From Nanobdellota archaeon (GTDB lineage Archaea > Nanobdellota > Nanobdellia > Woesearchaeales > DATDXC01): a stretch of 56,341 nt of DNA. Made by a program: the position numbers and the translations under genes. The stretch covers positions 1 through 56,341 of the forward strand of contig JBDRFR010000061.1 in assembly GCA_043818675.1 (NCBI GenBank). The letters are read 5' to 3'. Shown in pieces: positions 26,987 to 47,358 of this stretch. Each line of letters opens with the position of its first letter. Position 1 is the first letter of the stretch. The notes below the pieces were generated by a model. The model did not search any database. It was given only the letters and a program-made list of their open reading frames with translations, and had not been told where the DNA came from.

Positions 26987-27154
26987 ATGAGCAAGCAAAT
27001 CAGAATCACTGTCAGCAATGAGATAGACAAGATGCTTTCTAAAGTTGCCAAAAAACTGGGCAAGAAAAAATCAATGCTTGCAAGAGAGCTGATGGAACAA
27101 AAGATGTATGACCTTAAACTTATCCAGAAGGGTCTCGAGGATATCGAACTATGA
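26987..27154 (+). CDS. Ribbon-helix-helix (CopG/MetJ-like) protein, first gene of module B
   Basis: MSKQIRITVSNEIDKMLSKVAKKLGKKKSMLARELMEQ shows the RHH pattern. ATGA overlap with the 27151 gene. Confidence 0.6.
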   Translation: MSKQIRITVSNEIDKMLSKVAKKLGKKKSMLARELMEQKMYDLKLIQKGLEDIEL

Positions 27155-29310
27155 AAAAAGCGCAGGTTACAATATTCATCATCCTGGGTATAATCATCCT
27201 AGCTACAGGGGTTGTCTATTTTGCGATGAGAACTGATATTGCTGCCCAAGAAACTGAAGAACAATCAATCTTATCAGAACAGATACCAATAGAGTTTGAC
27301 CCTGTGCAGATGTATGTTGAAAACTGCCTGACAGAAATTGCCATGAAAGGGCTGAAAATACTGGGAGAAAGAGGAGGATATATCAACCCGGCAGCGATGG
27401 GATATGAGCTGAATAGATACGGCACAGAAGGCAATGCAATAACATGGGCAGCAAACTGGGTGATGCCGTACTGGTGGCATCTAAAATCAGCTAATACATG
27501 CGACGGTGACTGCGTGTTCGATACGCCGGTGCCTGAAGGCAAGCTGTTTTTGTACAAAACCAGCGGGTCGCCAAGCATACAGGCGCAGCTTGAAGAGTAT
27601 GTTAATTCCAACATCAAAGAGTGCCTGTTTAATTTTATGAGGCTTAGAGATGAAGGGTATAAGATCAGAGAGCTTGACACGCCGCAGACAACTGTAAGGA
27701 TCATCGATGATGAGGTGTTGTTTGGGCTAAGGTATCCGATAGAAGCTACAAAAATCTCAACAAAGACGATATCGCAGTTTTCGACAAAGATAGATGTGGA
27801 CCTAAAAGGCATCTATGAGTTTGCTTCGTTAGTCACATCTTATGAGATACAAGGGCATTTCCTTGAAAATTATATAACAGACATGATCGTTGCATTTTCA
27901 GGGGCTGATGCAGAACTGCCTCCAATGTCAGAGACACTATTTAGGCTTGGCGGCGGAAAAATCTGGAGCAAAAACAGGATTGAACAGCATATCCACCAAA
28001 ACATACTGCCAAACTATATACAGGCGCTTAGGGTGTTTGGCACGCAAAATTATGAGGCGTTCAATGTGGCAGATGATCCGATAAGCTCGGGATTTTATAA
28101 TAATAATATGGTGCTTCCGGGAAACAGAAGCTTTACGCATCTTACAGCAGATTTTTTCTATGACGGGCTTAGGTGGAAGCCGTACTTTGACCTAAACTGC
28201 AACGGGGACGAGTGCAGGCCGACATCCATTCTGGGCGAGGTCATGCAACTGATAGGGCTGCAACGGTACAATTTCCTGTATGACCTAAGCTTTCCGACAA
28301 TGGTGACGATACGAGACCCAAGGGCGTTTTTGTTCAATGAGGAAGAGGGATATACGTTTAATTTCCTGCTTGAAGCTAATATACGGAACAACAAGCCGCT
28401 AAAGGCTGATTATACATCGCCGCCTGTGATGGAGGATGCAGGCAATTCAATGGTATGCGACTCTAACAAAAGATTATCAGGCAATATTACGATACATATC
28501 AAAGATTCATTAACACAAAAGAATGTGCCGGATGCGCAGGTATTATACACAATTGCCGGAGAGTCGTGCTATATCGGCAGCACTGATATGGACGGAAACC
28601 TTGCTGCCAAGTTTCCGATAGGGTTTAACGGCATAATATCTTTTATGAAGCAGGATTATATCACCTATTCAGGGATAGCCACAACTCAGATGGATAAAGA
28701 ACAGGAGCTGGACGTATCACTTACACCGATAATCACAAAGCCGTTTACTGTAGGAAAGGTTATATTTGATAAGCACGGTGCAGACGATTACAGGGTAAGA
28801 TATTCGACAATGCTCAACCCTGTAAACCTATCAGAAGGGGAGCGGGCGATGATAACCCTTACACGAAAACCGAACAGAAACGAAGCTGAGTTTTCAACTT
28901 ATGCAGAGTTATGGGGCAACAGGAGCTTTGGGTCTATACGTATCGCGCCGGGCGAGTATGAGATGCGCATCGATCTTTTTTACCATAAAGAGCTGACAAT
29001 ACCGGAGCGGACTCTAAACTATGACGGACAGGCTGTCATCTTCCCAGGATTTGCATTCAATGACAGCGACCCGATGCCAAACGGCGGACTGCATTGCGAT
29101 GAAGACACATCGACCGGGCAGGCGTTTTTGGAGTCCAACCCTAACTTTAATGCAACCAATATAATCCTGTTCAAAACAGTATCGCTTGACCTGCAGAACT
29201 GGAACCCAAGCTCGATACTGCCGGAAGAAGACCTTGTGGAAACGTCCAACTATGATAAATATAAACAGTACTGCTTCCAGCTAGCTCCGCACATATATAA
29301 AAATGGCTAA
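27151..29310 (+). CDS. Large protein with class III (pilin-like) signal peptide, module B (719 aa)
   Basis: N-terminus MKKAQVTIFIILGIIILATGVVYF. Paralog of the 13024 and 37036 proteins (blocks listed under 13024). Confidence 0.85.
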   Translation: MKKAQVTIFIILGIIILATGVVYFAMRTDIAAQETEEQSILSEQIPIEFDPVQMYVENCLTEIAMKGLKILGERGGYINPAAMGYELNRYGTEGNAITWAANWVMPYWWHLKSANTCDGDCVFDTPVPEGKLFLYKTSGSPSIQAQLEEYVNSNIKECLFNFMRLRDEGYKIRELDTPQTTVRIIDDEVLFGLRYPIEATKISTKTISQFSTKIDVDLKGIYEFASLVTSYEIQGHFLENYITDMIVAFSGADAELPPMSETLFRLGGGKIWSKNRIEQHIHQNILPNYIQALRVFGTQNYEAFNVADDPISSGFYNNNMVLPGNRSFTHLTADFFYDGLRWKPYFDLNCNGDECRPTSILGEVMQLIGLQRYNFLYDLSFPTMVTIRDPRAFLFNEEEGYTFNFLLEANIRNNKPLKADYTSPPVMEDAGNSMVCDSNKRLSGNITIHIKDSLTQKNVPDAQVLYTIAGESCYIGSTDMDGNLAAKFPIGFNGIISFMKQDYITYSGIATTQMDKEQELDVSLTPIITKPFTVGKVIFDKHGADDYRVRYSTMLNPVNLSEGERAMITLTRKPNRNEAEFSTYAELWGNRSFGSIRIAPGEYEMRIDLFYHKELTIPERTLNYDGQAVIFPGFAFNDSDPMPNGGLHCDEDTSTGQAFLESNPNFNATNIILFKTVSLDLQNWNPSSILPEEDLVETSNYDKYKQYCFQLAPHIYKNG

Positions 29311-32524: not shown

Positions 32525-32667
32525 TAGAGAAACTTGTTTGAGAAAATGGAACAGAATGAAAAAAGCAAAATTGTCAAACCCAAAAGAGGGACAAAGCATG
32601 GATGAGACAAAAATTACTCAATTGAGTAAAAAAATAGTCAATATTGATGAATGGAAAATGTTTTAAT

Positions 32668-33003
32668 ATGAAAAAAGCGCAATTGTCAAACCCGAGATTG
32701 GGAATGGTCGTAATACTACTAGTCATCTGTATAGTGATGATAGCGTTTACAACTTCAAAAGTTTATATGGCGACGGGCAATGCGGCATGCTTTCTTCCGT
32801 TAACAAACATCACGCTTTTTGATAATGCAACAAAGGAGATACAGGATATCAATATTGGAGATGAGGTGTTATCTTATGATTTTGAAAATGAACAGAATGT
32901 TAAAGTTGAGGTTATGAATGTTTTTTCACACCAAGAAAACAGGTATATGATAATTAATGGCAATATGAAAGTTACGCCAAACCATATGGTGTATGCAAAA
33001 TGA
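32668..33003 (+). CDS. Pilin-like leader + 28-aa linker + N-terminal split Hint/intein half (111 aa)
   Basis: MKKAQLSNPRLGMVVILLVICIVMIAF...ATGNAA is followed by CFLPLTNITLFDNATKEIQDINIGDEVLSYDF...NMKVTPNHMVYAK-stop. Intein block A (Cys1) and block B (TPNH) are present and blocks F/G are absent. Confidence 0.8.
   Translation: MKKAQLSNPRLGMVVILLVICIVMIAFTTSKVYMATGNAACFLPLTNITLFDNATKEIQDINIGDEVLSYDFENEQNVKVEVMNVFSHQENRYMIINGNMKVTPNHMVYAK
32788..33000 (+). other. Split Hint/intein N-half IntN1 (71 aa)
   Basis: It starts at TGC 32788 (Cys1) and contains the TxxH motif TPNH. It ends at the gene stop, at the position where the contiguous copy (34475..34861) continues with EGQWVPIG. Confidence 0.8.
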
Positions 33004-33941
33004 ACAATACAGCATACCTAACAAATCTGAATGCAGGACTTTGGTTAATAGTCATTATTACATGTATAGTGATGGTTGGATTTATCGGTTCGAAAAAATC
33101 GGTGAATCTAATATCTGTGAATTCAGGAATTGAAGGGATAAGCGGGAATGTAATCCAAACCAACCAAGAAGGTATTAGTAATCAAGAATATGTTGCAAAG
33201 AACTCAGACCAGATAACTACAATAGCTAATAGCCATAATGTACCTCCTGCTGAACTTGCAGCAATAATTATTGCAGAAAGAAATCCTACTGGCCCGCAAT
33301 CGCATGATACCGGAACAAACTTAGGAGTAACCGCAATGAGTGTTAGTCAAGCAAAAACATATAGTGGTGCTGCTGGAATGACTGATCAGGCAATTGCGAA
33401 TAAATTACAAAATGATGATAATTTTGCGATAGAAGCTACCGCTAGTAGAATGGCGTATATACGCAGTCTTAATAGCTATGATAAGTATTATTCAGACCCT
33501 AGAATATCAGGAGATCCAGTAAAGACAGGACAATTAACATTAGCTATATGGCGTGGAGATATTAATGGAGCACGAGAGGAAAATTTTAATAGGATAGTTA
33601 ATGGAAAATTTGCGGAAATGTATACTAGTGGTCAAGCAACAAATCATCTCTCCGAACAAGCTGCTGAAAACAGAGTTGATTCGTTCAATCGTGCAAGAGA
33701 GGCTATTGGAAGCGATGAATCAGCAGCGTGCTTCCTTCCGTCCACTCAAATAACATTATCTGATGGATATAAAGAAATTCAAGATGTAAAAGTTGGAGAT
33801 CAAGTATTATCATATGATCTTGACAATAAGCAAAATGTTAAGGCTGAGGTTGTGAATGTTTTTTCGCATAAAGAAAACAAGTATATGATAATAAATGGCA
33901 ATATGAAAGTTACGCCAAACCATATAGTTTACGCAAAATGA
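33000..33941 (+). CDS. Membrane-anchored lysozyme/lytic-transglycosylase-like protein ending in an N-terminal split Hint/intein half (313 aa)
   Basis: TM helix LWLIVIITCIVMVGFIG. Candidate SLT-like region at aa 72-160 (PPAELAAIIIAERNP...TNLGVTAMSVSQAKTY...NDDNFAIEATASRMAYIRSL). The C-terminal 70 aa are CFLPSTQITLSDGYKEIQDVKVGDQVLSYDL...VTPNHIVYAK-stop. Confidence 0.75.
   Translation: MNNTAYLTNLNAGLWLIVIITCIVMVGFIGSKKSVNLISVNSGIEGISGNVIQTNQEGISNQEYVAKNSDQITTIANSHNVPPAELAAIIIAERNPTGPQSHDTGTNLGVTAMSVSQAKTYSGAAGMTDQAIANKLQNDDNFAIEATASRMAYIRSLNSYDKYYSDPRISGDPVKTGQLTLAIWRGDINGAREENFNRIVNGKFAEMYTSGQATNHLSEQAAENRVDSFNRAREAIGSDESAACFLPSTQITLSDGYKEIQDVKVGDQVLSYDLDNKQNVKAEVVNVFSHKENKYMIINGNMKVTPNHIVYAK
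33729..33938 (+). other. Split Hint/intein N-half IntN2 (70 aa)
   Basis: Cys1 at 33729 and a TPNH motif. It is about 90 percent identical at nucleotide level to the 3' part of IntN1 and ends at the gene stop. Confidence 0.8.
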
Positions 33942-36235
33942 AAAAAATAATATCAATACTGATGATCGTGCTGTTAGCCAGTTTTGCATCTGCATGGAAC
34001 TGGGTGCCAATCGGGTCGCTAAAGCCAGGCAATGTATTGATGGACAAGGACGGCAACGAGATCGTGATAGAAACCATCGAAGAGGCCTATGACCCAGAGG
34101 GTGTTACAGTGTATGACCTGGAAGTTAAAGACTACCATTATTATTACGCGCAGGGGGCGCTTGTGCATAATAGTCAGACAGATTTAACTTTTGGCGGATT
34201 ATATTCTGCTGATCACATCAGTTCGATAGCTGGAAATGCTGATGCGATCAGGGCTGAAATTAACAAACTGGACACGACTGATAGTGGAACTACAGTTGGT
34301 ACAGATGTTCATAATGCCCGAACCTATTTGCAGAATATGCTCGCTGAGGCGGAGCGTTATAGGTTACAGAGTCCATACGGTAACCCTAACGGATTGCAGG
34401 GTACCCTATCAGAAGAGGAGCCACAATATACCTTATTGAGTAGTCATGAAACTCAATCATTGAATTCACCAGTCTGCTTCCTATCCGGAACAATGATAAC
34501 ATTAGCCCACAGCACAAAACCTATAGAAGATATCAGACCAGGCGATAAAGTGTTAACTTATGATTTTGATAATGGAAAAACTGTTGTGTCAGAGGTTGTT
34601 GATACATATCAAAGATTAACCAATAAATATTTAGTCATTAATAATAAGATCAAGGTTACACCAGACCATATATTTTATATTGAAGGACAGTGGGTGCCGA
34701 TAGGCGAAGCGCAGATTGGCGATAAGATGGTAGATAATAAAGGTAATTATGTTACAATAGAATCTATAGAAAAGATTGCTGTGCCGGAAGGTGTGAAGGT
34801 CTATAATTTTAAGGTTAAAGGTTACCCGTACTATTATGCAGAGGGAATACTGGTGCATAATGAATATGAGACAGTTAAGATAGGTGATATAAATTTTCAG
34901 GTCACTCGCAATGCTGATACAAATGCTATCACTGGTTTTACAGGAGGAGAATATAATGGTGGTCCAATGGATCAGGCTACGCTTGACCAGATGCAGGCAT
35001 ACAGCGGTACAGGGTATACGACTGATACATCAAGTGATACGATTACAATCAGAAACTCAGACAATAAGCAAGTATTTTCAACAAGCTCCAGTGGGACAAC
35101 TACAGCAACGATAAATGGTCAATCCACAGATGTTATACCCCGCACAACAACTGTAAATAGCTTTGAACAAGTACCTATTGACAGTAATAACGATGGAAAA
35201 ATAGATGATGAGGATAAGGGTAAAATGAGTAGACCAAGACCTTCAACAACCACTGTCATCCACACCAATGTGGTCAAAGGAGGTGATAATGCGGGTGATC
35301 ACCATTTTACTGGAACTGAGAGGACACAGTATCATTATAACCTGCGAGGTGTACAAACTTATTCAGATACTGCAAACTATAATGCAAAAGGGGAAATGAC
35401 AAGTTACACTTATAAAAATAATGGAGGTGGAGAATGGACCACGGTAAATGGTAACATGCCTTCAGGCGCACCACAGTCTGCTAAGACCGCATGGTCTCAG
35501 GCGCAGTGGAGAAACAGGATGGCAAGCTTTGAATCGTGGTTTACAGCATACCAGGGCTTTTCAGGATATTCAAGCCTTCTCTGGGATGAGGAAGATACAT
35601 GGGTGCAAAACTGGAAAGATGATGTCAATGATTTCTTCTGCTCGACTGTTATCGGCGGAGGGGTGGACTGCTTTACGTCAGCTGTGTGCTCGTCAGGAAT
35701 TGATGATTCAGACATACCTGCTAATGTTGCGTTTGTCACAACGCCAAACGGGCTTACTATGACAGCTGCGCATGTAGAAGCAGAAATGTCCGGACCGCTT
35801 ACGTCTATTGATGAGACAGGAGCAGAATACACTGAATACCTGTACAAGATAACCTATGTTGTCAATAATATGCAGGGCAGCGGGTATGATGACCTAAAAG
35901 TATACTTACAGCTGACAGGCGGACGGACTTATACCTTCCCGCAGGAGACTATAGAGGAAGGAAAAATGGTAAGGCATACAGGAGCTAATGCTATAGTAGA
36001 TTACAGCTACTATAGGTATACCACAGCCTGCCTGTATTTTGATAAGGAACTGTCGTCTGTATCAGATTTTGAGCCGTTTGGAAGCAACTCTAAGATGACC
36101 AGTATCTGCACACCGATAGCGCAATCAAATGCGCCAGCTTCAAGCGGAACAAGCTCAGGCAGCAGTTCAAGTGCAGCAAGCTCAGCAGCGCCTGCAGCGC
36201 CTGCGTGCACTGTTGTGACGGATTGTGATATCTAA
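33938..36235 (+). CDS. Leader + C-terminal split Hint/intein half + 101-aa segment + complete Hint domain + Ser/Thr-rich and beta-rich C-terminal region (765 aa)
   Basis: MKKIISILMIVLLASFASA is followed by WNWVPIGSLKPGNVLMDKDGNEIVIETIEEAYDPEGVTVYDLEVKDYHYYYAQGALVHN|S (blocks F and G). A contiguous Hint spans aa 180-308. The tail is ...SGTSSGSSSSAASSAAPAAPACTVVTDCDI. Confidence 0.8.
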   Translation: MKKIISILMIVLLASFASAWNWVPIGSLKPGNVLMDKDGNEIVIETIEEAYDPEGVTVYDLEVKDYHYYYAQGALVHNSQTDLTFGGLYSADHISSIAGNADAIRAEINKLDTTDSGTTVGTDVHNARTYLQNMLAEAERYRLQSPYGNPNGLQGTLSEEEPQYTLLSSHETQSLNSPVCFLSGTMITLAHSTKPIEDIRPGDKVLTYDFDNGKTVVSEVVDTYQRLTNKYLVINNKIKVTPDHIFYIEGQWVPIGEAQIGDKMVDNKGNYVTIESIEKIAVPEGVKVYNFKVKGYPYYYAEGILVHNEYETVKIGDINFQVTRNADTNAITGFTGGEYNGGPMDQATLDQMQAYSGTGYTTDTSSDTITIRNSDNKQVFSTSSSGTTTATINGQSTDVIPRTTTVNSFEQVPIDSNNDGKIDDEDKGKMSRPRPSTTTVIHTNVVKGGDNAGDHHFTGTERTQYHYNLRGVQTYSDTANYNAKGEMTSYTYKNNGGGEWTTVNGNMPSGAPQSAKTAWSQAQWRNRMASFESWFTAYQGFSGYSSLLWDEEDTWVQNWKDDVNDFFCSTVIGGGVDCFTSAVCSSGIDDSDIPANVAFVTTPNGLTMTAAHVEAEMSGPLTSIDETGAEYTEYLYKITYVVNNMQGSGYDDLKVYLQLTGGRTYTFPQETIEEGKMVRHTGANAIVDYSYYRYTTACLYFDKELSSVSDFEPFGSNSKMTSICTPIAQSNAPASSGTSSGSSSSAASSAAPAAPACTVVTDCDI
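33995..34171 (+). other. Split Hint/intein C-half IntC1 (59 aa, +1 Ser)
   Basis: Block F-like VYDLEVKDYHYYYA and block G LVHN, followed by Ser79 (AGT 34172-34174). Confidence 0.8.
34475..34861 (+). other. Contiguous mini Hint/BIL-like domain (129 aa) with Glu at +1
   Basis: CFLSGTMITLAHSTKPIEDIRPGDKVLTYDF...KVTPDHIFYIEGQWVPIGEAQIGDKMVDNKGNYVTIESIEKIAVPEGVKVYNFKVKGYPYYYAEGILVHN|E. It aligns end to end with IntN plus IntC and so defines the split point. Confidence 0.8.
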
Positions 36236-37035: not shown

Positions 37036-38955
37036 ATGAAAAGAGGACAGATCACCATATTTATAATAATGGGACTTGTGATAATGCTTGCAGTCTCGTA
37101 TTTTATCTTTATCAGGGAGAAGTCCATTATACAGCTGGAGCAGATCAACCCGGAACTGCTGCCTGTCCAAAGCTTTATTGAAACATGCATAATCAACACA
37201 GGCAAAGAAGGGCTTACCACGTTAGGGCTTAACGGCGGCTATATCTATTTCCCGCCGTATATCGAAGAAAACCCGGACAGCTATATATCAAGGTCGCCGA
37301 CGCCTGAGCTAAAAAATCCGTACTGGTGGTTCGACGGGATATCGCGTGTGCCGACAAAAGAGTTCATGCAGGACCAGATATCAAGGTATGTTACTGAAAA
37401 CCTGCCGGAATGCTTAAACAGCTTTGATGTTTTCAGCAATAAATATGAGGTTATCGAGCATGGCGATATGGGCACAATAACAGAAATCGGCAATTCGATG
37501 GAGTCGCTTGTAAAGATAGAGACAATGTATCCGCTTGAGATCAAAGATAAGTTTAATAAGACGCTTGCAGAGATAGACAGGTTCAGGGTAGAGGTGCCGG
37601 TGCGGCTTAATGCTGCGCATACGCTTGCAAGACGTATCATGGAATCAGAAAATGCTGGCGGGTTTATGGAAAAGAAAGTGATAGACCTTATAGCGATGGA
37701 CGATGATATACCAGATACTGGCGGGCCGAAGTTTCAGTGCAATAAGCTTCAATGGCAGGTGGAGCCGATCAAAAATAAATTAAAGATGCTCATGACAGAA
37801 AATTTCCCGTATATAAAGATCAGGGGGTCAAACTTTACACCTGACCGGTATGTGCCGCTGCCGGATATTGCGCCGTGGGCAAGCCTGCCTGAAACTTATA
37901 ATGCGTCATATTATTGGCACCATTATATATGGGAAGTGGGAGATGAAGACTATTCTAACATGAAAGTGGGGTTTACGTATGATAATTATGAGCTTGAATG
38001 GCTAAACGATTTCTATATACGGCCTAATAACTATCCGATAATCGAATCTAACTCACAGCGGGGCAACCAGATGCTGTCGTTCTTCTGCATGCATATATGG
38101 CATTTTACATACGATGTGAAGTTCCCGGTCAAGGTTACGATCGTTGACCAGGATACCAGAAAAAATGATGAGTTTTCGTTCATATTTGCGTTCCAGGGCA
38201 GTATTGACCATAATGAGCCAAGGAGGGATACGTTTGCTATAACTGATTATCAGACAAGCAATATTATCCGGGATGATGAGTTTTGCAGCAGTGAACTGGA
38301 TAATACAATGAGGTTCTATGCAATAGAAAACACTACGACAGGATATGAGCTTAAAGGCGTGAATCTAAGCTTTGTATGCGGCAGGTATGAGTGCCCTCTT
38401 GGCCTAACAACACCTGATTATTCAATGTACGGGACACCGTACTGGCAGGGAGTTATGCCTCGATGCACGCTTGGGATATTGAGGGCTAAAAAAGAGGGGT
38501 ATGCTGATTCGCAGCGGTTCATCTCGTCAGAAACCGAGGGCGCGTTTTATATCTATATGCGGCCTGTCAAAGAGATCAATTACAGTGTTGTTAAGCATGA
38601 ATATATGGGATCAGGCATCCCTAACGCGCCGGCGCAGAAACTAAAAGATGATGAGTCAGCGATAGTCATCATCAAAAAGCCAGGGTTTGAAGAGACAGCA
38701 ACATACAGGACAGACCAAAAGATCGAACTGCTGGACCGGGATGATTATGATTATGATGTGGAAGTGTACATAATGACAAACGAGTCAATGATTGGCGGGT
38801 ATAAAGGGAAGTGGCATGCGTCAGAAATAGAGATGGAGAATGCTAAAGAGGTTGTATTTCATGCTGTGTATAAGCCGTTTTCAGACGATACTGAGATGAT
38901 GATGTTTTTTGCAGGGCTGCCGAGCTATTCAAATAGGGAGCCGGAATTCAGATGA
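37036..38955 (+). CDS. Large protein with class III (pilin-like) signal peptide, module C (639 aa)
   Basis: N-terminus MKRGQITIFIIMGLVIMLAVSYF. Paralog of the 13024 and 27151 proteins. Confidence 0.85.
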   Translation: MKRGQITIFIIMGLVIMLAVSYFIFIREKSIIQLEQINPELLPVQSFIETCIINTGKEGLTTLGLNGGYIYFPPYIEENPDSYISRSPTPELKNPYWWFDGISRVPTKEFMQDQISRYVTENLPECLNSFDVFSNKYEVIEHGDMGTITEIGNSMESLVKIETMYPLEIKDKFNKTLAEIDRFRVEVPVRLNAAHTLARRIMESENAGGFMEKKVIDLIAMDDDIPDTGGPKFQCNKLQWQVEPIKNKLKMLMTENFPYIKIRGSNFTPDRYVPLPDIAPWASLPETYNASYYWHHYIWEVGDEDYSNMKVGFTYDNYELEWLNDFYIRPNNYPIIESNSQRGNQMLSFFCMHIWHFTYDVKFPVKVTIVDQDTRKNDEFSFIFAFQGSIDHNEPRRDTFAITDYQTSNIIRDDEFCSSELDNTMRFYAIENTTTGYELKGVNLSFVCGRYECPLGLTTPDYSMYGTPYWQGVMPRCTLGILRAKKEGYADSQRFISSETEGAFYIYMRPVKEINYSVVKHEYMGSGIPNAPAQKLKDDESAIVIIKKPGFEETATYRTDQKIELLDRDDYDYDVEVYIMTNESMIGGYKGKWHASEIEMENAKEVVFHAVYKPFSDDTEMMMFFAGLPSYSNREPEFR

Positions 38956-41900
38956 TAAATAAAGAATTAATCGCATTAACACTTATCTGGCTAGTTATAC
39001 TAATGCCGATCACATCGGCAGAGATTGTTATACGGGATGTTACAGTTGAAGATGTTACAGACAGCGGCTCCAATATCACATGGAACACTGACATATCATC
39101 AACAGCAAGAGTAACATACGGGAAAACTGTACCGTTATCAGAAAACGCATATGGAGCAGGCCTTAGCAAAAACCATTCTGTCATCGTAGAGGATCTTGAC
39201 GAGTCAACTCCGTACTTGTTTGAAGTATACTCGCTTGCAGGCTCTAATTCAGGAACAGACAATAACAACGGACAATATTACCAGTTTACAACACTACCGG
39301 ATGTTACGCCAAATATTAAAACTTTTATCAATAGATATCAGCAGACAAGAACTAAACAGATAGAGCTATGGACAGACCCTAACAGCGAAGTTGAGATATC
39401 TGTCAATAACGGAGCAACAGACCTGCAAAGAAGCTATGCAGACCCTAAAGGGTTTTTTTCTGCTACTGTTGACCTCTTGGACGGAGACAATACTCTCAAG
39501 GTCAAGGTTGAAGACCCAAGAGGGCATAAGAATGAAACAGAATTTATCATTACAGTTGACCAGATAATACCCAGCTTTAATATCAGGCCGCTGATACCGC
39601 CACTTACTGCCAAGAATAAGATCCTTGTAAACGGGACAGTTGATGAGAATGTTACAATGAATTTAACTTTGGAGTACCAAAAAACTGATACAACACCGCC
39701 TGCCAAAGTAATCAACCTCACAAATGTTACTATCGACAGCAACTCAGTTGAGCTTGAATGGAACAAGATTACTGATGCTGAAAAGTACCTGGTTTACCGG
39801 GATAATTATTTACTTTCGGTACGAACTACTAACCAGTTTACTGATCAGGTTAATACAAGCACTGAATATACATATTCTGTTTCTGCTGTGGATGCATCGT
39901 GCAACCAAGGTGAAGGTTCTGATGAATTGGTTATAAAAACTCAATCAGGCGCAAATAATGTTACAGCAACTGTTACACCACCACAATCTGAGTGCGGCTT
40001 TGTGCAAGAAGTTATAATAAATACTAAAGATTTTTTTAAGCAGGAATTTACGCTCAAAGATGAAGGGTTTTATATGTTAACTGTCGAAGCAAAAGACCCT
40101 GCTGGGAATATGAACAAAACAGAATTCAATATATATTATGATGTTAACCCGCCGGAAATAACTGATATTGAGCCGCCGGACGGGACAGACTTTTTTGAGC
40201 AGTTTGCTGACGATGTGGACATTACAGGCAAAACTGACCCGGGAGCTAAAGTGTACCTGTATGTTAAAAGGACGCCGATGGGTGAATGGAACACGACAAT
40301 GTTTGAGAGGATTGCAGATCAGATCAACACGATAGCAGAAGAAGACCTGTCAACTGATAGTGATAGAAACTCAAGAGCGGATTATATGACGCTTGCTGAT
40401 GCGAACGGCAATTTTCTTTTTCCTAAAGTTGACATCAGGTCAAGTGTGGCGCTGGGCGGGAGGGTGCAGCAAATCAATTATGAGGATCTGCATGATCTTA
40501 CAAACCAATATAAAGAGATTCAAAAATCTAACTTATTATTCATAGCAACAGACGCGTTCCAAAAAAGAGGGTATGAGCCGATAGAATACGATGTTAAGAC
40601 GTGCTGGTCAGGCGATATGTTATGGGATGCTACGCCGCTTCTGCCCTACCAAAGCCCTGCGTTCATCTCAACTGAGCGGCTTGCAGAAGGGCTGGAGACA
40701 TTATACTTTTATTTTAATTTTACATATTATGGTGATGCAGTAAAAGACCAGGCAGAGATCACAAGCGTCACTGTTGAGCGGGCGTGCGATGAGTATATAG
40801 TAAGAGACCCTAATTATAATCACAGCTGCAATGTAATGGGATCGTCGGCTGCGACTGTAAGGATAATCAATGGAAAAACTGCTTATGTAGTGTATAGGCT
40901 TTCTGCTTATAAAGTGATGGACCAGTGGAGCAGCGGCGACTGGAACAATTTTTTTAAAGGATTAACAGATAACCAGATGCTGTTTCCACTGAGGTTTACT
41001 ATCCAGTATAAATATAAAAAACGAATCCAGGAATATGATACAAACGGCATTGTTAGGGCATGGAGCGGGCAGGATGCTTCTGGAAATTTCTATTATACAA
41101 CCGGGACACAGAGGTTTTGTGAAAGTGTAGGGTATTATGTTGATATGGGGAGGATTGACCCGCGGGATGTCCTGCCTGACTGGCTGCTGTATGATTTTGT
41201 CGATATCTTAGAAGATATAATAGAAAAGACCACTGAATGGATCGACGACCTGGGTAAGATACTTGAACAGGTCGCTATGGGGTGCATGATATCGTACTTT
41301 GGCAAATTTTTTATCAAGGTCTATCGGAATTTTAACTGCCGGATCGAAGGGATAAAAAATGTGGGAGCGGCTGTTACAGGCGGAGGCGCTGCGACTGCTA
41401 AATGCAAGCAGTGCATCCAGGATTTTGATTATAAGGGAAGTGTACCCAAGGGAATGAACATTGATGTTATGAAGCCTGATGATATTTCAGATACCTGCTT
41501 AAAAGAATGCTACCCTGGATGTTACAGCGCGTGGCAGACAGAGGCAACATGGCATACATTTTTCAGGTATACCTGTGATCGGCTGTTTGGGCATTCGTCG
41601 CCTGCGGGCTGGACTGAGGACAAATCTAATAATGAAATACTTAAGAAAATTAAGGGCGGGTCGCAGTGCGACAGCGACCAGTCTACAAAAGGAAGGAGGC
41701 TGACTGTTGTTAATTGCAGGGAAGCCTACAGAAGGCTAAGCGGTGGCAGTGCAGCAGGCGGGTTTGGAACTAATGATGAATGCGTTGAAATGACTGGTGT
41801 ATCGACTGGTGTATCCGGAGCGGTCAACACAATTCAATTGTATAAAATTGGCAACGCACAGAGCAGTGGAAGCAGCATATACAACTTAATTTATCAACAA

Positions 41901-44900
41901 ACAGATTTAAGCAGGACCTTTTCGACTGAGTATGCAATCAAACAGTCTAACAATTATTATTTAACATACCAACCAAAAACGTGCGCTGAAATATGCGGCG
42001 CGCCAGGATCGACTGTATCAACTGGACCTGCTAAAACTGTATCAGTCGGCACAAAAAAAATTAATATTTACCCTATCAAGCCGCCAACAACTGGAAGTGT
42101 GGCTAAAACTAAAGACCCTTATTATACCTGCACAATCGCTGACTCATGCAAAAGCCTGAACAAAAATACGGATGATCAACATAAAAGTACAATCAATGAT
42201 GCGTTTACAGCCGGATATACAAATGATTGTTTCTATAAAAAAATATTTGCAAAGGATCAGGAAGTAACAAATGCATTAGATAAACCACAATCTGTGAGCG
42301 GCAAATCAAGTGAACGGTACGAATGCTGCTGTATCAGCGCTGGTGAGAATAGCGCTGCAGACCAATACTACCAGCCGCAGGATGTTGAATCAAAAACTAA
42401 GAAAAAGGCGCCTTATGGAGTGGATCATGCAGGAGGCAATGGAATAACAGACCCAAAAGAATACGCAGATATGGAATGGAGTTATAGGTATTTTAAGATC
42501 AATTGGGCAGCGCCAGCAAGTAGAACAGGCACGGTGGTGCGTGATCAATATAACCCTGACAGGTACACATCCGGAAGGGATGCGCCTGCTTGTTTTGGGC
42601 AGGACCATCTATGGGGTGGAGAAGAGGTAGTGAAACTTGACCCTGCAAGGGATTTTCTTGCGGCATTCCAATGCGCTGATGTAGGAGGTATCCTAAACAG
42701 GCTGTATCTTGTAAGAAACCTGGCAACTGCGCTTAAAACCTGCCTGATGCAGGTACGGACAACCGGGAGAGCAGATTCAGGGATGTGCAAGGAGATGTTT
42801 ACACAGTACATATGCTCGTTTATATGGAAGGTTATAGTCTGGGTGCGCGACGGGTGCAGCCCGATGGGGTCGCTATTGGATGCAGACGGTGAAGCTGGAT
42901 GGTCGCAGTATATTGTTGCGGGGGTTGGGTCGATGGTGGATTCTGTCCAGGATTCACAACTAGAGATGGCGCAGGAGTACGGCAATGCTGACATCAACAG
43001 CCTGTTTGGGATGGGAGAAGAGGCTGTTGCAAGGAAAGTTTGCCTGGCTGCGTTTGGGTATGACTGGGATATAGGTGTCCAGAATTTTGTCGATGCTGCG
43101 TACGCTGCGCCGTATGAGACGCTTGTAATGGCGCCGAACATACTTCAGGGCAGGGAATACCTGACGTTTGACCCGACAACGTCACCGTCGCAGTCTGTCT
43201 ATGAATATAAAAATACATGGACCATCAATCCGGGGTGTAATTTTGACGGGTATAGAGTTTATCTAACATGCATAGGAAGCGAAGAGTTTGCAACGCAACA
43301 GGATGTACGATGCGACAAGGTTGAAAGCCCGCAAAAGCCTGACTGCCCGTGCGCTAACGGAGCGTCGCAGTCGCGGCTGCTGTATACAGGCGGAGCGCTA
43401 ACCAAGAATGTTCTGGAGGATATTGACCATACGATGATCCCTGCAGCCAATAGGATCGTTACGTCACCGTATCGGTATGACCATATAAAAATCGAGATTG
43501 ACGCTAAAAATATTGCGGCAGCGCAGGGAGATGTCAACAGGTGTTTTGGCGAGGGGCATGTGCAGGGCACAAAAGGCGTGTATTATTTCCCTATCAAAGA
43601 TTATACACCTTCGGATTTTGTGGCGTGCGAAGTTGATGCGGCTTCAGGCACGTTCTACTGCAATAAAGGGGCTGCGTTTTTGAACCCGTACGGGACAACG
43701 TATCTTACTTCGCTTAAGGTTAACAATAAGCAGGTGTATCCGCCTACTGCTGTAGGTACGTTTACTGTAGAACCACTGGTATTATATGCAAAGGATGATA
43801 GGACTATAAGCGGGACTGTTAATTATTATAAGGATGATAAGGCAAAATGCTTGGTAGTCAGATTGACGGATAGCATGGGCCAGCTCATAGGACAACAGCA
43901 TAATTTCAAACTTACAGGATCTGCCGGAGACCAGACAAGGTCAATACCGACGATTAATATTGGCGACCAGTACACACCGAGCCTTGCGGCGGGTGTAACT
44001 TATAGTGTTACGTCAAGCCCCGCAGGTTTAAACGGAGAGGTTGTTAATCCTGTTGGGTTCACTACAGTTATAACAAAATCAAAATCGATAACATTCCAGG
44101 ATGGAAACAGTGATAATAAGATTGAATTAAAAGACGGATCAGTTGATAAATTCAAGATAGACGGATCGTTCGTGCCCTTATCAACGGTTTGTGCGAGCAA
44201 TATTTGCACGTTTGCCTTAAATTGGAATGATGGTAATAAAGCAGACGTAAAGTTGATTTATACTGAGATTGCTATTACTCAACCTGAAACTGAAAAGGTA
44301 TATAGTTTAACCATTACAAAACAACCTATGTCTTCTACCACACCTGGCGCACGTTTTGGGCTGCATATTGACCTTAGAAATCCGGTGACGGAAAACGGGG
44401 ACTGCGCGCAGGCTGCAGCGTCTATCTATGATGATAGCCTGGTTGTTGTAAATAACGGGATAAGGCAGTGGTATGATGTGCCTATCCAAGTTCTTGCTGG
44501 GAGTGGGTATGATAGTCAAAGATGCGCGCCAAATATGCCTATTTCAAATGATTGTTATTGCGCGCCTACCACTATTACAAGCACTACACAGCTGGACTGC
44601 CCTAAAGCAACTCTGGGTTATTATTACTGCGTTGATAGTAAATGCAGGCGGTATAATAAATGCACAATGGATACAAACGGCGAAGTTAACAACGGGCCTT
44701 GTGTTTGCGGTGTTGTAAATGATGTGAATAAATTTGATTGCGGGTATACAACTGGCGCTGCTGATAATGACTATGCCGGAACTGATCCAACTAATAAAGC
44801 GGAATATCAGTATTGTTCTGCTACTACGACGGGTGGTTCTTTATCATGCAAAAAAGCGGCCAGTGCTGCTGTAGTGAGATCCCTAAGTACTACTGCTGAT

Positions 44901-45818
44901 ACGACTATGTTTAATACACTATCTTCGAAGATTTCAATATCAACTACATTAACAGATGCTATTGCGGTATTGAAATCTGATTATAATGAATTCAATACAC
45001 CTGTAAAATTTTTAAAAACTGATACTGGTGCAAAATTGACTATATTCAATAAATTAATTGAATTGATCAGAGAAGAATCAACACTTACTTCACTGACATA
45101 TTTAAAATTGGATAAGATCAACAAAATTTATTACTGGAAAGGCGGAGATGATATCCGATTGTTTATTGATGAAAGCATTAGGTTCAAATCTGATTGGAAC
45201 ACTTATACTTATGAGGAGTATTGGATTGATTATCCGATAATAGATGCATATAAAGATAAACCGTATAACGTAGCTGCTGCTGGCATAATTCGCTTTGGAG
45301 ATGCAGAGGTTACTGCTGCAAGTACGAGCACAACTGGCGAATTAATTGAAAATACTGATGTGGAAGGAAAATTGAAAGCAGGGATAACATTATACTATTA
45401 TGATGTGGGTTTCCGGACTGTAAAAGGAACTGAAGTAGATTATGAAGAATGGACTTATGATAGCCATAGTACTACATACAAAGGTAAAAAATATAAGAAT
45501 ATTGTTCTATTCAAAACTGTTTGTACCAAAAACATTAACGATGTACTCTATGAGTCGATTAGTGAGTTACCCGATTGTACAACCACACCAGCCTGCTTCT
45601 TACCCCAGACAAAGATCACGATGGCTGATAATTCCAAGAAGGAGATACAGGACATCATACCTGGCGATAGGGTTATATCGTATGACCTGGAGAATAACAT
45701 GCCTGTGGAATCTGAAGTGTTGAACACATTTGTGCATCCGGAATATGAGTACTTGGTCATCAATGATAATATCAAGGTCACGCCGTACCATTATGTGTAT
45801 GCTAAAAGGAACAGGTGA
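38952..45818 (+). CDS. Giant secreted surface protein, paralog C (2288 aa), with FN3/Ig-like repeats and a Cys-rich domain, ending in an N-terminal split Hint/intein half
   Basis: Signal peptide LIALTLIWLVILMPITSA. FN3-like segments (VTDSGSNITWNTDISSTARVTYG...STPYLFEVYS; DSNSVELEWNKITDAEKYLVYRDN...EYTYSVSAVDASCNQG). Cys-rich domain homologous to paralogs A and B. The last 74 aa are CFLPQTKITMADNSKKEIQDIIPGDRVISYDL...KVTPYHYVYAKRNR-stop. Confidence 0.9.
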   Translation: MINKELIALTLIWLVILMPITSAEIVIRDVTVEDVTDSGSNITWNTDISSTARVTYGKTVPLSENAYGAGLSKNHSVIVEDLDESTPYLFEVYSLAGSNSGTDNNNGQYYQFTTLPDVTPNIKTFINRYQQTRTKQIELWTDPNSEVEISVNNGATDLQRSYADPKGFFSATVDLLDGDNTLKVKVEDPRGHKNETEFIITVDQIIPSFNIRPLIPPLTAKNKILVNGTVDENVTMNLTLEYQKTDTTPPAKVINLTNVTIDSNSVELEWNKITDAEKYLVYRDNYLLSVRTTNQFTDQVNTSTEYTYSVSAVDASCNQGEGSDELVIKTQSGANNVTATVTPPQSECGFVQEVIINTKDFFKQEFTLKDEGFYMLTVEAKDPAGNMNKTEFNIYYDVNPPEITDIEPPDGTDFFEQFADDVDITGKTDPGAKVYLYVKRTPMGEWNTTMFERIADQINTIAEEDLSTDSDRNSRADYMTLADANGNFLFPKVDIRSSVALGGRVQQINYEDLHDLTNQYKEIQKSNLLFIATDAFQKRGYEPIEYDVKTCWSGDMLWDATPLLPYQSPAFISTERLAEGLETLYFYFNFTYYGDAVKDQAEITSVTVERACDEYIVRDPNYNHSCNVMGSSAATVRIINGKTAYVVYRLSAYKVMDQWSSGDWNNFFKGLTDNQMLFPLRFTIQYKYKKRIQEYDTNGIVRAWSGQDASGNFYYTTGTQRFCESVGYYVDMGRIDPRDVLPDWLLYDFVDILEDIIEKTTEWIDDLGKILEQVAMGCMISYFGKFFIKVYRNFNCRIEGIKNVGAAVTGGGAATAKCKQCIQDFDYKGSVPKGMNIDVMKPDDISDTCLKECYPGCYSAWQTEATWHTFFRYTCDRLFGHSSPAGWTEDKSNNEILKKIKGGSQCDSDQSTKGRRLTVVNCREAYRRLSGGSAAGGFGTNDECVEMTGVSTGVSGAVNTIQLYKIGNAQSSGSSIYNLIYQQTDLSRTFSTEYAIKQSNNYYLTYQPKTCAEICGAPGSTVSTGPAKTVSVGTKKINIYPIKPPTTGSVAKTKDPYYTCTIADSCKSLNKNTDDQHKSTINDAFTAGYTNDCFYKKIFAKDQEVTNALDKPQSVSGKSSERYECCCISAGENSAADQYYQPQDVESKTKKKAPYGVDHAGGNGITDPKEYADMEWSYRYFKINWAAPASRTGTVVRDQYNPDRYTSGRDAPACFGQDHLWGGEEVVKLDPARDFLAAFQCADVGGILNRLYLVRNLATALKTCLMQVRTTGRADSGMCKEMFTQYICSFIWKVIVWVRDGCSPMGSLLDADGEAGWSQYIVAGVGSMVDSVQDSQLEMAQEYGNADINSLFGMGEEAVARKVCLAAFGYDWDIGVQNFVDAAYAAPYETLVMAPNILQGREYLTFDPTTSPSQSVYEYKNTWTINPGCNFDGYRVYLTCIGSEEFATQQDVRCDKVESPQKPDCPCANGASQSRLLYTGGALTKNVLEDIDHTMIPAANRIVTSPYRYDHIKIEIDAKNIAAAQGDVNRCFGEGHVQGTKGVYYFPIKDYTPSDFVACEVDAASGTFYCNKGAAFLNPYGTTYLTSLKVNNKQVYPPTAVGTFTVEPLVLYAKDDRTISGTVNYYKDDKAKCLVVRLTDSMGQLIGQQHNFKLTGSAGDQTRSIPTINIGDQYTPSLAAGVTYSVTSSPAGLNGEVVNPVGFTTVITKSKSITFQDGNSDNKIELKDGSVDKFKIDGSFVPLSTVCASNICTFALNWNDGNKADVKLIYTEIAITQPETEKVYSLTITKQPMSSTTPGARFGLHIDLRNPVTENGDCAQAAASIYDDSLVVVNNGIRQWYDVPIQVLAGSGYDSQRCAPNMPISNDCYCAPTTITSTTQLDCPKATLGYYYCVDSKCRRYNKCTMDTNGEVNNGPCVCGVVNDVNKFDCGYTTGAADNDYAGTDPTNKAEYQYCSATTTGGSLSCKKAASAAVVRSLSTTADTTMFNTLSSKISISTTLTDAIAVLKSDYNEFNTPVKFLKTDTGAKLTIFNKLIELIREESTLTSLTYLKLDKINKIYYWKGGDDIRLFIDESIRFKSDWNTYTYEEYWIDYPIIDAYKDKPYNVAAAGIIRFGDAEVTAASTSTTGELIENTDVEGKLKAGITLYYYDVGFRTVKGTEVDYEEWTYDSHSTTYKGKKYKNIVLFKTVCTKNINDVLYESISELPDCTTTPACFLPQTKITMADNSKKEIQDIIPGDRVISYDLENNMPVESEVLNTFVHPEYEYLVINDNIKVTPYHYVYAKRNR
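45594..45815 (+). other. Split Hint/intein N-half IntN3 (74 aa) at the C-terminus of the giant protein
   Basis: Cys1 at TGC 45594 and a TxxH motif TPYH. It stops at the same structural position as IntN1 and IntN2, plus a 3-aa RNR extension. Confidence 0.8.
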
Positions 45819-45841
45819 TATTTTGGACTTAAGTACAAAAA

Positions 45842-46015
45842 ATGGGACAACGAATTGAAAAGATAGCTGAAGTGTTCTTTGAAAATCCAGGCAGCCGGTT
45901 TACTGTAAGAAGGCTGGAAAAATTATCAAAAATATCAAAATCAACAGTGAAAAACTATCTGGACTTATTGAAAAAGGTAAGAGATTTTCGTTTTAATAAT
46001 AGTAGGTTAACATGA
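45842..46015 (+). CDS. Small wHTH protein, 57 aa (below the ORF-track cutoff)
   Basis: MGQRIEKIAEVFFENPGSRFTVRRLEKLSKISKSTVKNYLDLLKK resembles the wHTH N-termini of the 6467 and 52908 proteins. ATGA overlap with the 46012 gene. Confidence 0.45.
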   Translation: MGQRIEKIAEVFFENPGSRFTVRRLEKLSKISKSTVKNYLDLLKKVRDFRFNNSRLT

Positions 46016-47358
46016 AAAAAAAAGAGCTGGAGTTTATACTGCAGGACGGAGAAGGGTTAAAAATTGAGTTTAAGGAAAGCTTAAAGAATGTTGATAAGGA
46101 GATGGCTGCGTTTGCTAACGGCTCTGGCGGCAGGATTTTTCTTGGAGTTAGTGACCAGGGAAAAATAAAAGGTGTTAATATTAGTAATCATCTAAAATCG
46201 CAGATACAGGATACTGCAAATAACTGTGACCCGCCGGTTAAGATAAAACTTGAGAAGCTGGAGAATATCCTGATAATCAGTATAGAAGAAGGAATTGATA
46301 AGCCTTATAGGTGTTCATCCGGATTTTATATCAGGCAGGGGCCAAACTCGCAAAAGATGAAGACAGAAGACATCAAAAGCATGGTTTTTGCTCAGGGTAA
46401 AATAAAATTTGATGAGCAGACTAACAGTGATTTTGACTTTGATGATTTTGACCATAAAACATTTGATAATTATCTTAGTAGGGCAGGAATAGAGATGAGT
46501 TCAAACAGAAAAAACACATTATTTAATTTAGGCGTTACTGATAAGAATAATAAGATGAAGAATGCAGGCATATTGGCCTTCTCAAAAAATCCTAAAAAGT
46601 ATTTCATCAATGCATATATAACATGCGCAAGGTATGCTGGAACAGAAAAAGTTGACGTTCTTGACAGATTAGACCTAGAATCGAGTATTGTGGCTTCGGT
46701 TGAGGGTGCAATAAGGTTTATCAGAAGGAACACAAGGACAGGATATAAGATCAAAGGCATTGAAAGAGAAGAGATACCTGAATACCCAGTAGAGGCGCTG
46801 AGAGAGGCGATAATCAATGCAGTAATGCACCGGGACTATTTTGAAAAAGGAGCAAATGTTCAGATAGATATTTTCGAGAATCGCATTCAAATCTCGAATA
46901 TTGGATCTTTAATACCCCCTTTGAATAAGGATAATCTGGGCGAGATAGCTGTTAGGAGAAATCCACTTATAGCAGACCTTCTTCACAGGGTGCATCTAGT
47001 CGAAAAGATGGGAACCGGGCTTAAGAGAATAGAAGAAGAATGCAAAAAGCACGGACAGATAGGGTTTGAGATAAAGACTAACGGCTATTTTATTGCAATA
47101 TTTAGAGTAAAAGACATAAGAAGGGTCGGTGAAAAGGTCGGTGAAAAGGTCGGTGAAAAGGTCGGTGAAAAACTGACTGAAAACCAAAGTAGGATTATTG
47201 AGCAGATTATGCAGAATAATAAAATTTCTGCAAGAGAGTTGTCCACTATCGTAGGAATATCTCAAAGAAAGATAGAAGAAAATTTATCAAAACTAAGACA
47301 AAAAGGACTTTTGAGAAGGATAGGCCCTGCTAAAGGAGGGTATTGGGAAGTAAGATGA
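46012..47358 (+). CDS. AlbA_2 (Schlafen/divergent AAA_4) + HATPase_c_4-like + C-terminal wHTH putative regulator, copy 1
   Basis: GEGLKIEFKESL...EMAAFANGSGGRIFLGVSDQGKIKGV is the AlbA_2 signature. REAIINAVMHRDYFEKGANVQIDIF...RRNPLIADLLHRVHLVEKMGTGLKRI is the RecG-C-terminal-like domain. wHTH tail ISARELSTIVGISQRKIEENLSKLRQKGLLRRIG. Confidence 0.8.
   Translation: MKKKELEFILQDGEGLKIEFKESLKNVDKEMAAFANGSGGRIFLGVSDQGKIKGVNISNHLKSQIQDTANNCDPPVKIKLEKLENILIISIEEGIDKPYRCSSGFYIRQGPNSQKMKTEDIKSMVFAQGKIKFDEQTNSDFDFDDFDHKTFDNYLSRAGIEMSSNRKNTLFNLGVTDKNNKMKNAGILAFSKNPKKYFINAYITCARYAGTEKVDVLDRLDLESSIVASVEGAIRFIRRNTRTGYKIKGIEREEIPEYPVEALREAIINAVMHRDYFEKGANVQIDIFENRIQISNIGSLIPPLNKDNLGEIAVRRNPLIADLLHRVHLVEKMGTGLKRIEEECKKHGQIGFEIKTNGYFIAIFRVKDIRRVGEKVGEKVGEKVGEKLTENQSRIIEQIMQNNKISARELSTIVGISQRKIEENLSKLRQKGLLRRIGPAKGGYWEVR
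47124..47171 (+). repeat. Perfect 12-nt tandem repeat x4 (GGTCGGTGAAAA), coding (VGEK)4
   Basis: Four exact copies lie between the HATPase_c_4-like domain and the wHTH of copy 1. The repeat is absent from copy 2. Confidence 0.95.

Follow-up and report, generated by a model that had tools for sequence, protein, structure and literature searches.

The DNA analysed here, 56,341 nucleotides from a Nanobdellota archaeon (contig JBDRFR010000061.1 of assembly GCA_043818675.1, forward strand; this whole stretch is called the window), encodes a giant secreted surface protein that ends in the N-terminal half of a Hint domain. A six-frame motif scan together with family hidden Markov models (HMMs) has located three such N-terminal halves (IntN) at protein C-termini, three C-terminal halves (IntC) following signal sequences, and one intact Hint. 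The genes and features concerned are listed below, a slash within a sequence marking a cleavage, break or junction point.

38952..45818, + strand: giant secreted surface protein, 2288 aa (open reading frame, Pfam, ortholog comparison)
45594..45815, + strand: IntN half of a split bacterial intein-like (BIL)/PT-HINT domain at the end of the giant, 71-aa core plus basic RNR tail (motif, HMM, alignment)
32644..33003, + strand: carrier of 119 aa with N-terminal transmembrane anchor, linker of ~10 aa and IntN at 32788-33000 (motif/HMM)
33000..33941, + strand: carrier of 313 aa with transmembrane anchor, domain of ~200 aa and IntN at 33729-33938 (motif/HMM)
48668..49486, + strand: cargo 1 (IntC-276) with signal peptide at 48668-48730, IntC at 48731-48907 (59 aa, ending VHN), Ser+1 at 48908-48910 and Amidase_3 (Pfam/HMM)
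49483..50409, + strand: cargo 2 (308 aa) with signal peptide, IntC at 49543-49719, Ser+1 at 49720-49722 and a 229-aa domain (Pfam/HMM)
33938..36235, + strand: cargo 3 (765 aa) with signal peptide, IntC at 33995-34171 (VHN/S), 100-aa linker, intact PT-HINT and C-domain (Pfam/HMM)

The giant is read from an open reading frame spanning 2288 codons, whose last 74 (45594..45815) represent Hint blocks A and B. They start with CFLPQTKITM at Cys1 (Cys2215, codon 45594-45596), reach the TPYH of block B at 45780-45791 (T63, P64 and H66 are invariant in the IntN alignment) and end with KVTPYHYVYAKRNR (full module CFLPQTKITMADNSKKEIQDIIPGDRVISYDLENNMPVESEVLNTFVHPEYEYLVINDNIKVTPYHYVYAKRNR), followed directly by the TGA stop codon at 45816-45818; the extent of this reading frame and of its terminal half-domain, as given in the preliminary description, has been confirmed by the frame itself, Pfam and an IntN HMM. 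Readthrough of the TGA would add 15 unrelated codons without an IntC, and readthrough or a frameshift has been ruled out as a route into one, none lying downstream in any frame. Judged by eye, the N-terminus carries a Sec-type signal, MINKELIALTLIWLVILMPITSA/E, after which fn3/Big_13 domains and a Cys-rich core have been recognised. DPANN orthologs share this core up to about residue 2000, and it is followed by a unique tail of ~210 aa and finally by the IntN. The tail (44951-45593) has found no homolog in the searches run, and its GC content is 0.33 as compared with 0.435 for the conserved core. In Pfam, residues 2211-2286 cover positions 9-90 of the Hint model, which has 213 positions (E 2.3e-5, 24.5 bits), and on its own the IntN of the giant is matched by no models other than the generic Hint and Vint ones, in each case sub-threshold; the score stays under the gathering threshold because only half a domain is present. 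The family-specific IntN HMM, in turn, has scored 131.7 bits, and the 27 positions invariant across the four IntN copies of the window, Cys1 and TPxH among them, have all been kept in that of the giant.

The lengths of the halves are complementary, as an IntN of 70-71 aa and an IntC of 59 aa correspond to the 129-aa intact Hint of the reading frame at 33938, where the break YAK/WEW (VYAK/WEWVQ) aligns with FYIEGQWVP. Cys1 and TPxH (the TxxH of block B) have been kept in all three IntN halves, and Cys1 is invariant in the four window copies and in 109 of 109 intact relatives examined. Likewise, each of the three IntC halves has kept VYDLE..DYHYY, with Asp and His of block F, together with the terminal His-Asn and Ser+1, and VHN terminates these as well as the intact copy. 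The latter, located at 34475-34861 within cargo 3, ends VHN/E, and its block F Asp and His have been replaced. Against PT-HINT (PF07591, cutoff 27.7 bits) the intact copy has reached 96.2 bits (E 2.5e-27) and IntC halves have scored 36.5 and 30.9 bits, the higher value belonging to cargo 1 with coverage of positions 73-136/137; the intact copy also matches PDB entry 2LWY, a BIL domain of Clostridium thermocellum (E 1.8e-19). Judged from these matches, the family can firmly be assigned as A-type BIL/PT-HINT. The preliminary description had spoken of an intein, an identity which PF07591, 2LWY and the Foldseek matches given below replace by a split A-type BIL/PT-HINT domain.

The IntN of the giant has been joined to the amidase IntC and the chimera modelled with AlphaFold2. 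The single-sequence run gave a predicted local distance difference test (pLDDT) of only 40, and the model based on a 55-sequence alignment, with a pLDDT of 94.7 and a predicted template-modelling score (pTM) of 0.88, has been used instead. In Foldseek its closest structural match is 6Y75, the BIL2 domain of Tetrahymena BUBL (template-modelling (TM) score 0.91), followed by 2LWY (TM score 0.88, root-mean-square deviation 1.6) and by the DnaB and gp41-1 inteins (0.77-0.81), with NrdJ-1 also matched. On the basis of this model we are confident that the two halves would be compatible with one horseshoe Hint fold. The split would fall in a beta-turn between model strands 70-73 and 76-79, five residues past TxxH, and since the order of secondary structure elements repeats on either side, the break appears to lie at the junction of the pseudo-symmetric Hint subdomains. 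The DnaE-type split position lies ~25 residues beyond this break, as judged from the model and general knowledge.

A particular feature of the split halves is the residue following the terminal Asn. Of 109 intact relatives, 53 have Lys at +1, 14 have Ala and no more than 7 have Ser, and five of the six listed intact cases with Ser+1 belong by inspection to a close subfamily (...YDLEI..YHYYFAEGVLVHN/S). In the intact Hint of the window the +1 residue is Glu and neither Asp nor His of block F remains, and Ser+1 has been found in six of six split IntCs, three in the window and one each in the related loci L001, L018 and L025. BIL domains have been described as lacking a +1 nucleophile and mostly cleaving, with a single mutation leading to efficient splicing (PMC7664689), and cleavage has been reported as predominant for the A-type (PMC7664689, PMC7765530). 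Ser+1 in the split IntCs thus suggests that the split subfamily carries the very change expected to enable splicing.

Each IntC is preceded by a signal sequence of the MKK-hydrophobic-AxA type and each IntN protein has an N-terminal signal or transmembrane segment, both by inspection, and the window's cargos carry no anchor of their own. The effector of cargo 1 is an N-acetylmuramoyl-L-alanine amidase (Amidase_3, E 4.6e-40 in Pfam), for which an exact-sequence look-up of the protein has returned no record, and neither the 308-aa cargo nor the C-domain of the 765-aa cargo has a match in PDB or Pfam.

The region downstream of the giant is best understood from orthologous loci, and it contains the following further genes.

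45842..46009, + strand: 55-codon fragment like the N-terminus of helix-turn-helix (HTH)-nucleotidyltransferase (MNT-like) genes (by-eye comparison with a 169-aa protein of L001)
46012..47358 and 47343..48671, + strand: two tandem paralogous AlbA_2 (Schlafen-like)/HATPase_c_4/winged-helix genes (Pfam)
50498..51313, + strand: 271-aa multi-pass membrane protein (synteny)

Homologs of the giant have been found in metagenome-assembled genomes (MAGs) of Nanoarchaeia/Woesearchaeota with 31-46% identity over most of their length. The homology stops near residue 2000, and the ortholog ends differ thereafter: P0004 has a directly fused Trypsin_2 domain, the C-terminus of P0009 resembles a lytic transglycosylase by eye with no SLT match listed in Pfam, and P0005, P0007 and P0008 have immunoglobulin-like ends. 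Neither a Hint nor the amidase or the 308-aa cargo has been found in these orthologous giants; an ancestral giant fused to a complete Hint and effector, as imagined in the preliminary description, has consequently not been borne out, and a fused state is seen only for the pair of the 313-aa carrier and the 765-aa cargo (in L021). In L022 and L023 the gene order is C-domain protein, 226-like, 639-like, giant, 271-like, 418-like on the minus strand and, further on, GMP synthase. The window keeps this order save for 4.7 kb (45819-50497) separating the 271-aa gene from the stop codon of the giant, and as this gene lies directly 3' of the giant in the orthologous loci, it defines the far edge of an inserted block.

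Besides the HTH-nucleotidyltransferase fragment, this block contains the pair of AlbA_2 regulators and both IntC-cargo genes. The fragment marks a rearrangement at the giant's 3' end. The genes next to the giant had been taken for regulators and not for an IntC, which the AlbA_2/HATPase_c_4/winged-helix assignment corroborates, and ATGA stop/start overlaps link all genes from 46012 to 50409, from the regulators through both IntC cargos. Within the AlbA_2 pair a 300-nt 5' segment (46008-46307 and 47351-47650) is 94% identical, compared with ~64% overall, pointing to gene conversion or a recent partial duplication; a 12-nt repeat in four copies (47121-47180), encoding VGEKVGEKVGEKVGEK, is also present in the first of the two. 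No direct repeats or tRNA bounding the block have been found, and GC content as a marker of foreign origin has given a mixed result. As the giant directly abuts the 271-aa gene in orthologs and the block stands between them in the window, the cargo cassettes occupy the giant's variable 3' slot, and its C-terminus is, as far as the comparison of sequences tells, a variable effector slot. The three IntC genes indeed begin at 48668 and 49483, 2.85 kb downstream, and at 33938, 11.6 kb upstream, as had been noted at the outset. The term orphan, which had been applied to the giant's IntN, is thus correct for adjacency and incorrect otherwise, with two IntC genes in the same block at the giant's 3' end. 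Of the roles that had been suggested for the terminal half, the acceptance of alternative C-terminal effectors is the one best supported by comparative evidence, namely matching IntC cargos, variable ortholog ends and the 3' insertion.

Upstream of the giant, the stop of the 119-aa carrier overlaps the start of the 313-aa carrier, whose stop in turn overlaps the start of the IntC gene at 33938 (ATGA). The IntNs of these carriers are 76% identical and both adjoin the IntC of the 765-aa cargo, and the IntCs of the 276- and 308-aa cargos are 82% identical, are mutual closest relatives and both lie near the giant. Position hints weakly at two cognate groups, the 119/313 carriers with the 765-aa cargo and the giant with the 276/308 cargos. 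The C-domain of the 765-aa cargo has homologs in the C-termini of Hint-less single proteins that occupy the corresponding place in the gene order of L022 (1350 aa) and L023 (972 aa), and also in those of the L001 and L018 IntC proteins and of the two-Hint protein of L021. One protein family accordingly occurs in a Hint-free, a cis-Hint and a split-Hint state, which resembles the presence/absence pattern of inteins, and the coexistence of these states speaks for the joined product as the functional form. The intact Hint with +1 Glu in the 765-aa cargo could serve a later release of the C-domain by cleavage. The L021 protein itself (117-3005; JGI 3300033064) has been read as a one-piece arrangement of transmembrane anchor, Hint, 190 aa, Hint and C-domain.

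A profile search with the IntN against 1.84 billion representative proteins has yielded 5556 matches, and architectures have been derived from the best 150, the majority of which are intact Hints, often in tandem arrays. Proteins ending in IntN stop 3-6 residues past VYA (P0001, P0022, P0058, P0068, P0074, P0079, P0106/P0170, P0117, P0162), usually with a basic tail, and all of them have N-terminal signal or transmembrane segments; P0162 is a second giant of this kind, 2168 aa long and unrelated to that of the window. The underlying DNA has been obtained for nearly all of them, with P0079 and P0117 as exceptions. The split position, the signal peptide on the IntC and Ser+1 recur together in at least three other Woesearchaeota/Nanoarchaeota loci, and in L001, L018 and L025 an IntN gene is followed within 1.2 kb by a gene with signal peptide, IntC and Ser+1.

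L001 (ENA): transmembrane-SLT-IntN protein, and 1.2 kb downstream, beyond an inserted YhcG-like gene, signal peptide-IntC (VHN/S)-981 aa
L018/L019 (JGI): transmembrane-IntN protein, and beyond an inserted nucleotidyltransferase pair, signal peptide-IntC (VHN/S)->2000 aa
L025-L027 (Woesearchaeota, groundwater; NCBI HII17120.1): transmembrane-SLT-IntN and signal peptide-Peptidase_M23-IntN proteins, with signal peptide-IntC (VHN/S)-1018 aa

Searches with the IntN alignment (A1) have found nothing in JGI metagenomes, only weak generic Hint matches in IMG/VR and, in GTDB genomes, only intact Hints with +1 Lys and none split. The apparent IntN end of L021/P0066 has been traced to an in-frame change of GAA to TAA in the first Hint, at the natural split position (YINN, the stop, WKQIG), which may reflect a sequencing error, a nonsense mutation or a split caught in the making.

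The anatomy of the halves, their catalytic residues, the conserved split point, the Hint-fold compatibility and the synteny are directly supported. We infer from them the export of both partners, the pairing of the halves and splicing rather than cleavage as the outcome. According to this model, the host, a DPANN archaeon of the Woesearchaeota/Nanoarchaeota group, would export the giant and the two membrane-anchored carriers with IntN at their C-termini, and separately the cargos, whose mature N-terminus would be the 59-aa IntC followed by Ser+1. Outside the cell IntN and IntC would associate to a complete Hint fold and undergo the class-1 reaction, in which an N-S acyl shift at Cys1 is followed by trans-esterification to Ser+1, Asn cyclisation and an O-N shift, so that the cargo ends up ligated to the C-terminus of the carrier. 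For giant and amidase the predicted junction reads ...CTTTPA/SGKKVIV... (peptide ...DCTTTPA-SGKKVIVIDPGHGGK), and for giant and 308-aa cargo ...CTTTPA/SQIESPV... (peptide ...DCTTTPA-SQIESPVDK); further predicted junction peptides are ...ATGNAA-SQTDLTFGG and ...SDESAA-SQTDLTFGG. As a post-translational counterpart of the cassette exchange known from polymorphic toxins, the fixed giant carrier would thereby gain alternative enzyme heads and soluble secreted hydrolases would become cell-tethered, as ligation would provide the cargos with the anchor they lack; an archaeon without murein would presumably need no immunity against amidase, SLT or M23 enzymes. We consider it fairly probable that extracellular protein trans-splicing of this kind attaches cargo to carrier and swaps effector domains. 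For the more inclusive scheme, a natural many-to-many ligation outside the cell in which Sec-exported IntN carriers (giant, bare anchors, SLT/M23 hydrolases) and IntC-Ser cargos (amidase, other domains) are joined by a BIL domain split at the Hint pseudo-twofold axis, we would put the chances at slightly short of even.

Several points weigh against trans-splicing. No IntC adjoins the IntN of the giant, rearranged DNA with the HTH fragment and the duplicated regulators standing between, and the IntN-ended gene of L010 has no IntC within 8 kb. The IntC alignment (A2) has retrieved nothing from a 5.8-billion protein index, GTDB genomes and JGI metagenomes, so that the known distribution rests on few loci. 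The nonsense codon inside the intact Hint of L021 implies that truncation at this position can arise trivially, and the signal peptides have been judged by eye and not by a predictor. Chemistry at Cys1 outside the cell needs a reducing setting. The net charges, with -7 to -12 for the IntCs and about neutral for the IntNs, have made electrostatic complementarity an unconvincing candidate for bringing the halves together, the strong complementarity of classical split inteins not being seen.

The chief competing explanation accepts that the halves assemble and takes the Hint mainly to cleave or transfer, as in Hedgehog or the BIL domains of Tetrahymena BUBL: the C-terminal thioester of the giant would be lost to hydrolysis or to another nucleophile, for example a lipid, a lysine or an amine of the cell wall, and the IntC would act as trigger or docking partner, its cargo being freed by Asn cyclisation. 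The predominant cleavage by A-type BIL domains (PMC7664689, PMC7765530), BUBL BIL2 as the closest structural match and the +1 Glu of the intact Hint in the 765-aa cargo speak for it, as do large surface proteins of L007 and L008, which end in an intact Hint with +1 Lys and a tail of 7-8 aa, as fits processing at the C-terminus and not ligation. With Ser+1 in every split IntC and mostly Lys in the intact relatives, however, with the block F Asp and His kept in the split halves and lost in the +1 Glu copy, and with the IntC on soluble enzymes left unexplained, we regard this outcome as rather unlikely. In themselves, the terminal Hints of the two proteins (L007:6149-10408 and L008:5240-9427, from a bacterial and a Woesearchaeota MAG of GTDB) suggest a Hedgehog-like C-terminal autoprocessing of surface proteins.

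It has also been considered that the giant's IntN is an inert, tolerated remnant, left when a C-terminal Hint-toxin module was cut off by insertion or rearrangement of the HTH/AlbA_2 block. Such a history would fit the gene fragment and duplicated regulators directly past the giant's stop, the orthologous giants without a Hint, the L021 point mutation, which yields an IntN-like end at the exact position, and the absence of a nearby IntC for L010 and for the second IntN-ended giant (L009). It is nevertheless improbable in view of the completely kept invariant positions, the short basic tail shared with at least eight independent IntN-ended clusters, and the presence, within the very block inserted, of two IntC cargo genes with signal peptides; moreover, a fresh truncation or nonsense mutation would leave an IntC remnant, as in L021, and there is none in any frame. 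A check for a decayed pseudodomain, which the preliminary description had proposed, has likewise favoured function, Cys1 and TxxH being intact and the termination point being kept in at least eight other protein clusters. A further alternative would see in the halves a non-covalent docking pair of the cohesin/dockerin kind, in which no bonds are rearranged. The chimera modelled confidently as a single domain agrees with it, the many-to-many sets of carriers and cargos resemble cellulosome logic, and split-intein halves typically bind tightly. Docking has no structural need, however, for the strict conservation of Cys1, TxxH, His-Asn and Ser+1 across the split members, and we take it to be highly improbable.

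As judged by sequence, the module is a member of the Hint superfamily and, within it, of A-type BIL/PT-HINT, from which it departs in contiguity and in the +1 nucleophile. Sequence family, fold, Cys1, TxxH and the C-terminal His-Asn are shared, and so is the placement next to effector domains in the variable parts of secreted or surface proteins. The BIL/PT-HINT domains known so far are contiguous in one polypeptide, usually lack the +1 nucleophile and mainly cleave, whereas here two genes are involved with a stop after block B, Ser+1 is conserved, the C-half follows a signal peptide and the host is archaeal instead of bacterial. In its working, the pair can be likened to naturally split inteins (cyanobacterial DnaE; metagenomic gp41-1, NrdJ-1, IMPDH-1; AceL-TerL), with which it shares halves on separate genes, the full class-1 set, a +1 nucleophile and, as predicted here, protein trans-splicing as the expected chemistry, yet it lies outside the context that defines that class, which is one interrupted cytoplasmic host protein with a canonical split site. 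Classical split inteins are cytoplasmic and one-to-one, their exteins form one conserved protein of replication or nucleotide metabolism, interrupted at a conserved site, and they are split at or near the homing-endonuclease loop (~100/35 aa) or very early (25/104). Here, in contrast, both partners have predicted export signals, the relation is many-to-many with three IntN and three IntC in the one window, unrelated modules (giant, anchors, hydrolases) are concerned, and the split is mid-domain (~70/59). A single host protein is partly recovered only for the 313/765 pair, with its single-gene relatives in L022 and L023 (no Hint) and L021 (intact Hints).

With polymorphic toxin systems (Zhang et al., 2012, PMC3482391) the locus has in common a giant secreted carrier with variable C-terminus, a PT-HINT at the carrier/effector boundary and effector cassettes immediately downstream. 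Those systems swap cassettes by DNA recombination, and HINT only releases the toxin (PMC3482391), whereas each cassette of the window is a secreted protein in its own right, complete with signal peptide and IntC, implying exchange at the protein level. No immunity families have been recognised in the neighbouring genes by Pfam scans, and the overlapping cargo genes leave no room between them. Very large extracellular proteins bearing murein hydrolases have already been noted in Woese- and Pacearchaeota (PMC8204110); they are similar in lineage, size (~2000 aa or more), secretion and implication in bacterial cell-wall binding or degradation, but their enzyme domain lies within the giant polypeptide, and Hint halves or separate IntC-tagged hydrolases are not described there. 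A description of natural split Hint or BIL domains bearing signal peptides has not been found in the literature covered, which did not extend to the work of Makarova et al. (2019, mBio) on archaeal polymorphic toxins.

The adaptive use of protein splicing is a long-standing question. To our knowledge, all natural split inteins described are cytoplasmic and repair a gene that the intein itself has interrupted, whereas the halves reported here are on exported proteins, join unrelated modules and occur in sets, 3 + 3 in the window and 2 + 1 elsewhere. If the proposed trans-splicing is true, a natural split Hint would for the first time be seen to act outside the cytoplasm, and splicing to serve its host beyond gene repair. 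An active system would represent a natural case of module shuffling at the protein level, with combinatorial surface diversity achieved without DNA recombination, and would help to explain how giant adhesins are armed with murein hydrolases in genome-reduced episymbiotic archaea. A compact split pair of ~70/59 aa with a new break point, evolved for work after secretion, would in that case also be of interest for protein engineering.

Some neighbouring genes and relatives show further features. The 639-aa gene immediately upstream of the giant (37036-38955) has an archaeal prepilin-type signal (MKRGQITIFIIMGLVIM), is 52% identical to its orthologs (L001:16773-18713, L022:8025-10004, L023:8046-10004) and has a paralog in the window (27151-29310); it may be part of the giant's display apparatus. 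In every related locus, genes for MNT-like nucleotidyltransferases adjoin those carrying an IntN or IntC; some come with a small helical partner, with which they may form HEPN/MNT toxin-antitoxin pairs.

Window, 45842-46009 and 52902-53519: MNT-like neighbours
L001:9037-10004, L018:1778-2745 and L025:7838-10004: MNT-like neighbours

Between the SLT-IntN and the YhcG/DUF1016 nuclease genes of L001, a degenerate IntC-like fragment (11005-11097; HMM positions 30-54, 21.7 bits) points to an IntC cassette that has been destroyed. Many relatives have 2-8 complete Hints in tandem arrays (P0142, P0021, P0024, P0020 and others); in P0142 a signal peptide is followed by three Hints joined by KGW, and some arrays are back-to-back with linkers of only three residues. 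Finally, a secreted family of ~350 aa (P0071, P0087-P0089, P0091, P0099, P0115, P0122, P0152, P0156) combines an intact Hint with a Cys-less IntN-like module, in which G-x-K-I/V stands for C-F-L, and a Lys-rich end, and this module looks like a different half-Hint architecture, possibly a degenerate one.

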